From an uncultured Rickettsiales bacterium (GTDB lineage Bacteria; Pseudomonadota; Alphaproteobacteria; Rickettsiales; CAZAGG01), in contig CAZAGG010000001.1 of NCBI GenBank assembly GCA_964484565.1, positions 107,548 to 171,547 of the forward strand: 64,000 nt of DNA. Direction: 5' to 3'. Position numbers and translations under genes: made by a program. Below, in pieces: positions 40,868-43,901 of this stretch. The notes under the pieces were generated by a model, which ran no database searches, had not been told where the DNA came from, and saw nothing but the letters and a program-made list of their open reading frames with translations. Position 1 is the first letter of the stretch, and every line of letters begins with the position of its first letter.

Positions 40868-41745
40868 TGGCAAGTCTTAAAGATCTTAGAAACCGCATTA
40901 GAAGCGTTAAGGCAACACAGAAAATCACTAAAGCGATGAAGATGGTTGCCGCTAGCAAACTGCGTAGGGCGAGAGAAGCTGCAGAGTCTGCAAGACCATA
41001 TGCAGAAAGAATGGAGCGTATGCTTTCTGCCCTTTCTGCATCTATTGCCGATCCTTCTTCCGCTCCTCTGTTGCTTACAGGCAATGGAAAGGATGATACG
41101 CATCTTTTAATTATCGCAACGTCAGACAGAGGCTTGTGTGGGTCTTTCAATGGCAGCATAGTAAAGGCCGCAAGAAGAAGGTATGACGAACTTAAATTAG
41201 CTGGCAAAGCGGTGAAAATATTCTGCATAGGCAGAAAAGGCTATGAACTTTTAAGAAGAACGCATGGTTCTGCTATTATCGGCAAGATGGAAGATGTTAC
41301 AAAAGATAAGCCCAGCTTTGATTTAGCAAATGAGATTTCTGCAAAACTTTTGGAAATGTATGAAGCAGGTGAGTTTGATAAATGCACAGTCGTTTATAAT
41401 ACGTTTAAATCTGCAATTTCTCAAATTGTTACATTCAAGCAAGTTATTCCACTGAATATTGATGCAAGCGCAAAAGATGGCGGAACACTTCCAACTTATG
41501 AATATGAGCCAAAAGAAGAAGTTATATTAGACGAACTTTTACCAAAAAATCTTGCTATGCAGGTTTTCCACTCACTTCTTGAAAATTCGGCTAGTGAGCA
41601 AGGTGCCAGAATGACTGCTATGGATAACGCAACCAGAAACGCAGGTGATATGATTAAGAAACTTAATCTGGTTTACAACAGAACACGTCAGGCAGCTATT
41701 ACCAAAGAGCTTATTGAAATTATATCAGGAGCCGATGCGATATAG
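40867..41745 (+). CDS. atpG: F0F1 ATP synthase subunit gamma
   Basis: [34 protein letters not shown]-terminus and [16 protein letters not shown]-terminus. Confidence 0.92.
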
Positions 41746-41746
41746 T

Positions 41747-42040
41747 ATGCTTACATTAGATGAAATCAGAGTTAATTATAAAAATCAGATAATTAGTTTA
41801 GCTGATAAGCATGGTTTTGATAATGTCAGAGTATTCGGTTCTTTTCTAAATGATGAGCAAAATCCAAACAGTGATATTGATTTTTTGGTATCAAGAAGAG
41901 CTTATGCGGGTCTTTGGGAGTTAGCAGGTTTATATAGTGATCTTGAAGAGCTGCTAAAAGTGAAGGTTGATTTGGTAACTGAGGGTGGATTAAGCAAATA
42001 TTTAAGAGATGATATTTTGAAACAAGCTCAGCCATTATGA
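41747..42040 (+). CDS. mntA: MNT-domain nucleotidyltransferase (MntA-type antitoxin)
   Basis: RVFGSFLNDEQNPNSDIDFLV is the minimal nucleotidyltransferase GSx(n)SDxDxLV motif. The preferred ATG at 41747 lies 1 nt after the atpG stop; the track start at 41714 overlaps atpG. Confidence 0.75.
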   Translation: MLTLDEIRVNYKNQIISLADKHGFDNVRVFGSFLNDEQNPNSDIDFLVSRRAYAGLWELAGLYSDLEELLKVKVDLVTEGGLSKYLRDDILKQAQPL

Positions 42041-42369
42041 ACAAAGATTATGTAAGATTACTACACATGCAAGAAGCAGTTTTGAATATATTAGACATTA
42101 CAAGAGATGACAGCAGAGATCTCAAGACAGAGCTTGCAGTTACTCGTTGTCTTGAAATTCTTGGAGAGGCAGCTAAGGGCGTATCACTTGAAACAAGGAT
42201 GAACTATCCAGAGATTCCATGGAAAAATATGATTGCGACTCGTAACTTATTAATCCATGAATATCATCGCGTTGAGCCAGCAACAGTGTGGGATATTGTG
42301 GAGAAAAAACTTCCGTATCTCAAAGAATCACTAGATAAAATAATTTCTGATATATCATCACAAAAATAA
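42037..42369 (+). CDS. hepT: HEPN-domain (DUF86) protein (HepT-type toxin)
   Basis: ATRNLLIHEYHRV contains the HEPN Rx4-6H catalytic motif. ATGA overlap with the MNT gene. 110 aa. Confidence 0.75.
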   Translation: MNKDYVRLLHMQEAVLNILDITRDDSRDLKTELAVTRCLEILGEAAKGVSLETRMNYPEIPWKNMIATRNLLIHEYHRVEPATVWDIVEKKLPYLKESLDKIISDISSQK

Positions 42370-42389
42370 TTAGACTATAAGGAACCAGC

Positions 42390-43901
42390 ATGGCACTAAA
42401 AGATATAAAAGATCAAATAGCAAACAAGGTAAAAAAAGTGGTAGCAAAAAAAGATAAAGCAGAAAGCAAAACTGTATCAAGCGGAAGCAAGGGTTATGTA
42501 ACTCAGGTTATCTCTGCGGTTGTGGATGTTAAGTTTGACGGTGAACTTCCACCTATTTTGAATGCTCTTCATACTGAGTTAGATGGGCGTCTTTTGGTGC
42601 TTGAAGTCGCACAACACTTAGGTGAAGGCGTTGTTAGAACAATTGCTATGGATTCAACTGATGGCCTTGTTCGTGGCCACGAAGTATTTGATACAGGTGC
42701 TGCAATTAACGTTCCAGTAGGGCCAGAAACACTAGGCAGAATCATTAACGTTATTGGCGAGCCAATAGATGAGCGCGGTGCTCTCAAAACTAAAACAACT
42801 GCACCAATTCACGCTCCAGCACCAGACTTTGCAAGCCAATCAACTGAATCTGAAATTCTCGTCACAGGTATTAAGGTCGTTGACTTATTAGCTCCTTATG
42901 CAAAAGGTGGTAAAGTTGGCCTGTTTGGCGGTGCGGGTGTTGGTAAAACAGTTCTAATTATGGAGCTTATTAATAACATCGCAAAAGCTCACAGCGGATT
43001 TTCAGTTTTTGCAGGTGTTGGTGAAAGAACCCGCGAAGGTAATGACTTATACCGTGAGATGATTGAGTCAAAAGTTATTGATCTTGACGATCAATCAAAA
43101 TCAAAAGTAGCTCTGGTATATGGCCAGATGAATGAACCGCCAGGGGCGCGTGCACGTGTTGCTCTAACAGGTCTTACACTTGCTGAATATTTCCGCGATC
43201 AAGAGGGGCAAGACGTTCTTTTCTTCGTAGATAACGTTTTCCGTTTCACTCAGGCTGGCTCTGAGGTATCAGCTCTTCTAGGACGTATTCCTTCAGCGGT
43301 GGGTTATCAGCCAACGCTAGCAACAGATATGGGCGCGATGCAGGAGCGTATTACTTCAACTAAAAAAGGTTCGATTACATCAGTTCAGGCTATTTACGTT
43401 CCTGCGGATGATTTGACCGACCCTGCACCTGCAACTTCGTTTACTCACCTTGATGCAACTACGGTTCTTTCTCGTCAGATAGCAGAGCTTGGAATTTATC
43501 CCGCTGTGGATCCTTTGGATTCTACATCGAGAATTCTTGATCCTAAGATAGTTGGCGATGAACATTATAAGGTTGCGCGTGAAGTTCAAAAAGTTCTGCA
43601 AACATATAAATCACTTCAAGATATCATCGCAATTTTGGGTATGGATGAACTCTCAGAAGAAGATAAACTGATAGTTGCAAGAGCTCGTAAAATTCAAAGA
43701 TTCTTATCTCAGCCATTCCACGTTGCTGAAGTGTTTACTGGTTCGCCAGGTAAATTCGTCAACTTACAAGATACAATTGCTGGATTTAAGGGAATTGTTG
43801 AAGGTGAGTATGATCATATTCCAGAATCTGCATTCTATATGGTTGGAACAATTCAAGAAGCATTGGAAAAAGCTAAAAAGATGGCAGCAGAGGCGGTTTA
43901 A
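42390..43901 (+). CDS. atpD: F0F1 ATP synthase subunit beta
   Basis: Walker [10 protein letters not shown], the DELSEED-type loop (MDELSEEDK), 503 aa. AAGGA RBS 20 bp after the HEPN stop. Confidence 0.95.

Follow-up and report, generated by a model that had tools for sequence, protein, structure and literature searches.

The window, a 64,000-nt stretch of contig CAZAGG010000001.1 from an uncultured Rickettsiales bacterium, contains an F1 ATP synthase operon in which two small genes lie between atpG, encoding the gamma subunit, and atpD, encoding the beta subunit. The first encodes a minimal nucleotidyltransferase (MNT) of the type of the antitoxin MntA, and the second a HEPN ribonuclease (RNase) of the type of the toxin HepT. 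Together they are a real operon-embedded toxin-antitoxin module. With moderate confidence, this module is read as one instance of a pattern of junction cargo that recurs in a Rickettsiales-like clade.

The insert in the F1 operon

Examination of the junction upheld the tight placement that a sequence-only reading of the same DNA had described, and all of its coordinates held. A single spacer base (41746) separates the atpG stop codon from the MNT start codon, the HepT gene starts at ATG 42037 within an ATGA shared with the end of the MNT gene, and atpD follows 20 nt further on with its own AAGGA ribosome-binding site (Table 1). The MNT start at ATG 41747 was backed by alignment, in which homologues begin M[ILV]TLE. 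An AGGAG located 15 nt 5' of this start comes from the last atpG codons (TCA GGA GCC), and the conserved atpG C-terminal codons (SGAEA) form a purine-rich, Shine-Dalgarno-like stretch before the stop, which would aid translation of any open reading frame (ORF) directly downstream.

A second assembly (Logan, SRR12997673), which may derive from the same reads as the window assembly, was identical to the window locus over 4842 nt, making an assembly chimera unlikely. No RNA element was detected at the junction in an Rfam scan of the window, which gave one tRNA only, and no paralogues were found within the window; a 27-aa HepT-like match at 7602-7682 (E 0.012) looks like chance.

Table 1. Features of the window operon and cargo of F1 operon junctions in other loci (TM, transmembrane).
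Locus	Feature	Position	Strand	Basis or remark
Window	atpH (delta/OSCP), at the head of the F1 operon	38742..39308	+	ORF; PF00213 OSCP on relatives' homologues
Window	atpA (alpha subunit)	39335..40867	+	ORF; ~80% identity to atpA of related loci
Window	atpG (gamma subunit)	40867..41745	+	Pfam ATP-synt 2e-103; TAG stop 41743-41745
Window	mntA-like minimal nucleotidyltransferase (antitoxin), 97 aa	41747..42040	+	Pfam NTP_transf_2 1.1e-12, Polbeta 1.9e-10
Window	GSX10DXD nucleotidyltransferase motif, G31-S32-X10-D43-I-D45	41837..41881	+	Sequence; pattern match ends 41881
Window	hepT-like HEPN RNase (toxin), 110 aa	42037..42369	+	Pfam HepT-like 3.2e-22
Window	RX4HXY motif (R69 N L L I H74 E Y76)	42241..42264	+	Sequence; RNase active site and Tyr AMPylated in characterised systems
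Window	20-nt spacer with atpD Shine-Dalgarno AAGGA at 42379-42383	42370..42389	+	Sequence
Window	atpD (beta subunit)	42390..43901	+	Pfam ATP-synt_ab 4e-69
Window	atpC (epsilon subunit), final operon gene	43904..44299	+	ORF; PF02823 on identical L081 gene
L012	Rap1a-like gene and MNT-HepT at atpG-atpD			
L092	Two MNT genes separated by a 98-aa TM-protein gene	2112-2405; 2755-3060		
L018; L022; L037; L053	Conserved 139-140-aa OsmC/Ohr-like gene at atpG-atpD	5141-5560; 4888-5307; 4882-5301; 4911-5333		
L028; L042	23S-rRNA-IVP genes at atpG-atpD	2167-2598; 1476-1895		PF05635
L091	23S-rRNA-IVP gene at atpA-atpG	2468-2848		PF05635
L059	Apparent 23S-rRNA-IVP fragment	3804-3989		
L061	DUF5397 and Cas2-like fragment at atpG-atpD			
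L024	DUF6232 and coiled-coil ORFs at atpG-atpD			
L028	DUF2610 protein at atpA-atpG			
L012; L019; L083; L093	DUF4258 and DUF2283 pairs at atpA-atpG	3493-4000; 3364-3861; 815-1357; 2790-3283		Putative toxin-antitoxin
L006; L015; L025	Conserved ~80-aa TM ORF at atpD-atpC	4360-4602; 6362-6613; 6377-6631		Hyphomicrobiales-type genomes

Family assignment of the MNT-HepT pair

Class I HepT/MntA pairs are defined by the signatures GSX10DXD in MntA and RX4HXY in HepT, with a toxin of family PF01934 (DUF86/HepT-like) or PF08780 and an antitoxin of family PF01909, and the characterised MntA AMPylates the RX4HXY Tyr at the expense of ATP, blocking the RNase activity of HepT (Yao et al., PMC7641770). The window HepT scored 78.9 bits against the PF01934 model (cutoff 23.5) and carried RX4HXY exactly, while the window antitoxin matched PF01909 and carried GSX10DXD, with a third Asp (D75) within VKVDLV. 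The MNT gene was upstream of the HEPN gene, adjacent to it and overlapping it. The scores of both proteins were well above the Pfam gathering thresholds, and the pair and motifs recognised by the sequence-only reading were intact by sequence and by Pfam. The window carries a canonical class I type VII HepT/MntA module, of which toxicity and AMPylation are predicted activities.

A profile (A1) built from the window HepT and 21 homologues, in which R69 and H74 were invariant and Y76 was at least 90% conserved, matched the Shewanella HepT structures 5YEP and 6M6U at E-values of 6.3e-7 to 6.6e-7; the profile was needed, as a single-sequence phmmer search of the window HepT against the PDB gave no match. 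The window MNT matched the Thermus minimal nucleotidyltransferase 1WOT in the PDB at 3.8e-13, and it also matched PDC-S09, which in PADLOC is a candidate defence family only, at 9.1e-29; there was no PADLOC match for the window HepT. Scores against the NCBIfam models NF047751 (HepT_toxin, 34.9 bits) and NF047752 (MntA_antitoxin, 38.3 bits) were both below the 60-bit curated cutoff, and the window pair is thus a superfamily member and not an equivalog of the Shewanella-type pair.

Among the closest known systems is the type VII pair of Shewanella oneidensis (SO_3166/SO_3165; PMC7641770; 5YEP, 6M6U). Both systems have an MNT gene upstream of an overlapping HepT gene, a PF01909/PF01934 pair with exact GSX10DXD and RX4HXY motifs, and small proteins. 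The window pair is, however, only distantly related in sequence, and it is neither free-standing nor island-borne but part of an essential operon, where no promoter belonging to it could be detected. Among the 10,455 representatives (at 50% identity) of the HepT family recovered at E<1e-3, the window HepT was a divergent singleton with a best non-self match of 44%. The window module adds a new and divergent representative to a toxin-antitoxin type that is well known.

F1 junctions in other genomes

The order atpG-MNT-HepT-atpD was present in six further contigs (L012, L083, L090, L091, L092, and L093). L012 is one of the 80 GTDB representatives surveyed below. L083, on a JGI contig, was found via the nearest protein to the L012 HepT (P0249), and has the order atpA - DUF4258 - DUF2283 - atpG - lipoprotein (141 aa) - MNT - HepT - atpD. 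The last four are JGI contigs recovered in a metagenome scan for a DNA pattern that combined the conserved atpG C-terminus (MDNA...ELIEI) with the MNT motif FGS-X10-DXD at the window spacing and was checked locally. All four hits were genuine atpG-MNT-HepT-atpD loci, with the MNT start within about 10 nt of the atpG stop. The catalytic motifs were kept across these deeply diverged pairs. As in the window, the loci of this atp-embedded clade (including the HepT of L094, described below) use the atpG-atpD junction, on the same strand and in the same host clade, with a HepT gene that ends just 5' of atpD and an MNT N-terminus of the type M[ILV]TLE..R..YK.QI. Unlike them, the window has no additional Rap1a, lipoprotein or TM-protein cargo, and no DUF4258/DUF2283 pair or IVP gene at atpA-atpG. 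The recurrence of the arrangement in at least six other Rickettsiales-like contigs implies that the junction is a recurrent home for passengers and not the site of a one-off accident. In a side observation, the TM protein of L092 was homologous to a 216-aa TM protein encoded 3' of HepT in L090.

Two of these relatives show signs of decay or rewiring. L094 carries atpG, a 137-aa ORF without Pfam match, a HepT gene with an intact RX4HXY motif (P0153; 1540-1839) and a YbjQ-like gene, with no MNT gene, and the L091 HepT (4062-4415) keeps RX4H but has Cys in place of the AMPylated Tyr (RNIVTHDC). Such decay, together with the sub-cutoff NCBIfam scores, would suit a window insert that is an inert remnant, i.e., two decaying ORFs tolerated because expression of atpD is undisturbed. 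In the window, however, both full-length ORFs retain every catalytic residue, the AMPylation Tyr and the ATGA coupling, and the Pfam scores leave a wide margin over the gathering thresholds, making an inert remnant highly improbable.

Tight embedding was also seen away from the F1 operon. In L095 (2702-3327), a relative of the atp-embedded lineage was placed equally tightly between glyS and ppdK (glyQ-panD-glyS-MNT-HepT-ppdK), and in another relative, on a 614-nt contig, HepT overlapped the start of an hflC-like gene. The L095 arrangement shows that embedding in strings of housekeeping genes is not confined to the atp operon.

The junctions were surveyed in 80 loci from GTDB representatives, chosen as those whose AtpG was most similar to that of the window, or in 82 loci when L081 and L083, which were fetched via the MNT-HepT pair itself, were added. 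The gap between atpG and atpD was 9-100 nt in most loci and below 250 nt in 71 of the 82, in agreement with the earlier statement that atpHAGDC is normally contiguous. Inserts longer than 250 nt occurred between atpG and atpD in nine of the 80 representatives (11/82 with L081 and L083), between atpA and atpG in 5/82 loci, and between atpD and atpC in 6/68 loci, five of them real (L056 was an alignment artefact), while none was found between atpH and atpA in 67 loci.

The cargo of these junctions was diverse (Table 1). The OsmC/Ohr-like genes and the 23S-rRNA-IVP genes, the latter in Rickettsiales metagenome-assembled genomes (MAGs), resemble the window insert in being same-strand additions between atpG and atpD that leave the operon unbroken, and differ from it in being single genes and not toxin-antitoxin pairs. 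Elsewhere, the family of these 23S rRNA intervening-sequence proteins (23S-rRNA-IVP, PF05635) is familiar from inserts within 23S rRNA genes. The hosts of the OsmC/Ohr-like gene were Methylocystis, Beijerinckiaceae and Rhabdaerophilum, among whose relatives it was patchy. The atpA-atpG junction is a second passenger site of the same operon in the clade; at the edge of L090, a DUF2283 gene was found immediately 5' of atpG. Tybulewicz, Falk & Walker (1984) reportedly described a further such single gene, 'gene X', between the gamma and beta genes of Rhodopseudomonas blastica. In L084 (3501-5522), atpHAG was followed after 3 nt by a 381-aa ORF without Pfam match and then by OmpA/ExbD/TonB genes, with atpD elsewhere, and the Midichloriaceae locus L033 was likewise without an adjacent atpD. 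The same junction is thus an operon breakpoint in some lineages.

Descent, expression and possible role of the module

In a neighbour-joining tree of AtpA, AtpG and AtpD, every host of the arrangement belonged to a single clade of Rickettsiales-labelled MAGs (76% bootstrap), with plain-junction members interspersed among these hosts. The sister of the window was L084 (73% bootstrap; AtpG 67% identical), and the nearest sampled relatives (L084, L086, L088, L002, L007, and L008) lacked the MNT-HepT pair. The insertion is therefore patchy and not, as was conceivable beforehand, an old feature universal among relatives. In addition, many clade members have a clean, tight junction, which weakens the proposal that polar effects on atpD bar the loss of the insert. 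There were no close relatives for dating: the best AtpG match among 5.8 billion protein clusters was 67% identical, and for AtpG, MNT, HepT and AtpD no other sequence at least 90% identical occurred in a collection of 15 billion proteins, each being a singleton. The window organism is from a poorly sampled lineage, and, as no relative is closer than 67% in AtpG, no date can be given for the insertion.

There is clearly a long-lived toxin-antitoxin lineage embedded in atp operons, since the seven atp-embedded MNTs from outside the window were monophyletic in 100 of 100 bootstraps and the six corresponding HepTs, with P0153, in 56 of 60. Several points weigh against counting the window module as a further instance of this pattern. 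The protein trees were built by neighbour-joining from short proteins with roughly 100 columns, and in them the window MNT was sister to the atp-embedded clade in 55 of 100 bootstraps, which is weak, and the window HepT grouped with that clade in only 2 of 60. The window pair was 43% (MNT) and 37% (HepT) identical to the other atp-embedded pairs, compared with 55% and 51% among those pairs, whereas AtpG divergence was the same (about 61%) in both comparisons. Moreover, five of the atp-embedded loci were found by searching for the arrangement, so that its frequency in the clade is overstated; the clade members that were sampled without this bias and have the arrangement are L012 and the window only. 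Lastly, a repeat search of 41400-42700 revealed no target-site duplications or terminal repeats at the window insert, and no recombinase accompanied it, its neighbours being atp genes.

Target-site duplications or residual repeats at the insert borders, for which the sequence-only reading had suggested a search, were not seen beyond chance. Short repeats at chance level in 41400-42700 were rejected as evidence of transposition. An imperfect 13-nt inverted repeat at the borders, 41741-41753/42367-42379 (TATAGTATGCTTA / TAATTAGACTATA), was 77% complementary and looks like chance, since many similar short repeats occur in this AT-rich region. The insert was slightly AT-richer than its surroundings, and its G+C content at third codon positions (GC3) was at or slightly below that of the host (0.21-0.28 vs 0.27-0.33), so that foreign composition was rejected as a sign of recent import. 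The recent and unique mobile insertion implied by the sequence-only reading is thus not supported at this locus, which has neither scars nor a recombinase, a GC3 at or slightly below that of the host, and counterparts in six other deeply diverged contigs.

With regard to origin, it is about equally probable that the window copy and the main atp-embedded clade go back to one ancestral insertion and that the window copy was acquired, or replaced another cassette, separately at the same site. A single ancient insertion in the ancestor of the clade, inherited vertically with many losses and with the window as a fast-evolving descendant, has a little under an even chance. It would explain why the same site, orientation and tight spacing occur in seven contigs of one host clade, and it is consistent with the MNT affinity in 55 of 100 bootstraps, the GC3 at or slightly below host level and the retention of catalytic motifs across deep divergence. 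Against profiles of the atp-embedded clade, the window MNT ranked 2nd of 86 and the window HepT 7th of 135, and at least one of the HepTs that outscored it (P0153) is itself linked to atpG. The position of the window HepT outside the clade speaks against this explanation, as do the closer non-atp homologues (52-56% identity for MNT, to cyanobacterial or metagenomic proteins; 44-53% for HepT, to P0103 and P0002), the missing correlation between AtpG and toxin-antitoxin divergence (r about 0.07-0.09) and the many independent losses required.

An independent acquisition, or a cassette replacement, from a mobile pool of MNT-HepT pairs on plasmids and integrative elements, at the same permissive junction, is a serious alternative, although its probability also stays below one half. 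The closest HepT to that of the window (P0103, 44%) is sited in an integrase/SSB/TraG element, the closest MNTs are cyanobacterial and in some cases plasmid-borne, and plasmids carry homologous MNT-HepT pairs. Furthermore, the junction takes unrelated cargo in other lineages, and in L084, the sister lineage of the window, a different gene follows atpG. However, the window shows no insertion scars, repeats or recombinase, the composition of its insert is not foreign, and the affinity of its MNT to the atp-embedded clade, weak as it is, argues for relatedness. It is also improbable that the same toxin-antitoxin type entered the same junction twice without a mechanism of targeting or selection.

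Cassette mosaicism, which favours such replacement, was observed in two relatives. In L083, a 35-nt copy (32/35; 2660-2694) of the atpG 3' end (2191-2225) is located directly 5' of MNT, after the inserted lipoprotein gene, and looks like a footprint of recombination or duplication left by cargo insertion at the end of atpG. Between the two MNT genes of L092, identity was 90% in the first 111 nt but 52% in the remainder, a pattern suggestive of gene conversion or of a breakpoint of recombination within the conserved 5' part of MNT. The footprints in both loci indicate recombination, homologous or illegitimate, via the conserved atpG end and MNT 5' end, and not dedicated transposition.

In the recurrent-cargo reading of the window module, F1 junctions, chiefly atpG-atpD, would be a landing pad for small conflict-type cassettes in uncultured Rickettsiales-like alphaproteobacteria. 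Cassettes are probably gained, exchanged and lost by recombination for which the highly conserved atp genes provide homology arms, as the footprints in relatives suggest. Persistence of the module might reflect selfish addiction together with the price of an inexact deletion from an essential operon, or defence, or a link to the energy state. A bolder proposal makes the F1 junctions a recombination-driven cassette site, or miniature conflict/defence island, in which atpG and atpD would provide the homology arms and the operon the expression platform, and in its strongest version the ATP-dependent MntA/HepT pair would be kept to tie RNase activation to the energy state; this proposal is speculative and rather unlikely.

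The earlier remark that no terminator or obvious promoter is visible inside the insert stood, and its probable co-transcription with the F1 genes was supported. No promoter-like or terminator-like site was detected by a consensus scan of the plus strand over 41280-44600, including the 1-nt spacer and the last 460 nt of atpG, and site counts over the whole scanned region were at the chance level of shuffled sequence. Given the lack of internal consensus sites, the 1-nt spacer and the ATGA overlap, co-transcription is the most economical interpretation, as far as the sequence can tell. It must be set against this that the promoter scan used the sigma-70 consensus only, with a chance-level background, and that a weak or non-canonical internal promoter could escape it. 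The module would then be transcribed from the atp promoter within the atpHAGDC transcript, with MntA translated by re-initiation or coupling after the atpG stop, HepT coupled to MntA via the ATGA overlap and atpD translated from its own ribosome-binding site. By analogy with characterised family members, MntA would AMPylate HepT at Y76 with ATP, and unmodified HepT would cleave RNA.

Because MntA would spend ATP to silence HepT, the location of the module suggests a testable link between energy status and RNase activation. The module could thus be a domesticated switch, in which the dose of toxin would follow the expression of ATP synthase and its activity the supply of ATP, so that energy collapse would lead to RNA decay or dormancy, or to abortive infection. 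The use of ATP by characterised MntA proteins (PMC7641770), the long retention of motifs inside atp operons and the match of the MNT to PDC-S09 are compatible with this idea. Nevertheless, related modules are equally tight in unrelated housekeeping contexts (glyS-MNT-HepT-ppdK and HepT-hflC-like), the same junctions hold unrelated cargo, and the module is absent from most clade members; a domesticated switch is accordingly improbable.

The usual expectation for toxin-antitoxin and defence genes is a place on mobile elements or in defence islands, with autoregulated promoters of their own. In contrast, the window has a complete type VII module, apparently promoter-less, within an operon that ranks among the most conserved and essential of the cell. 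No description of toxin-antitoxin or HEPN/MNT genes inside atp operons was found in the literature searched, and what appears undescribed is the context: an apparently promoter-less module in the F1 operon, recurrent across a clade, at a junction that also takes other cargo. Selfish elements in essential loci, such as inteins, homing endonucleases and 23S rRNA intervening sequences with IVP, are comparable in that a passenger resides in an indispensable, highly expressed unit from which its imprecise loss would be lethal or costly. Unlike these elements, the window module has no homing endonuclease or splicing machinery, lies between genes and not within one, and has no established mechanism of propagation. 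If co-transcription holds, the module would be a natural example in which a housekeeping promoter sets the dosage of both toxin and antitoxin. It would allow tests of how selfish or defensive cassettes make use of essential operons for expression and protection from deletion, and would show how conserved core genes can act as recombination arms in cargo exchange. Inserts of this kind should be anticipated when alphaproteobacterial atp loci are annotated by pipelines or their operons predicted.

Additional features were noted around the module. The window as a whole (1-64000) is densely packed with genes, with 38% GC and a single tRNA (7829-7900). The ~80-aa TM ORF at the atpD-atpC junction of Hyphomicrobiales-type genomes may represent a small membrane protein of the operon that has escaped annotation. 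The AtpD of the window has a Lys-rich N-terminal extension (42390-42500) of about 35 aa ahead of the conserved beta-barrel start QVI(G/S)AVVDV, and Ala/Lys/Pro-rich extensions of variable length occur in relatives. The true start of atpD and its spacing to the upstream gene therefore vary widely across alphaproteobacteria.

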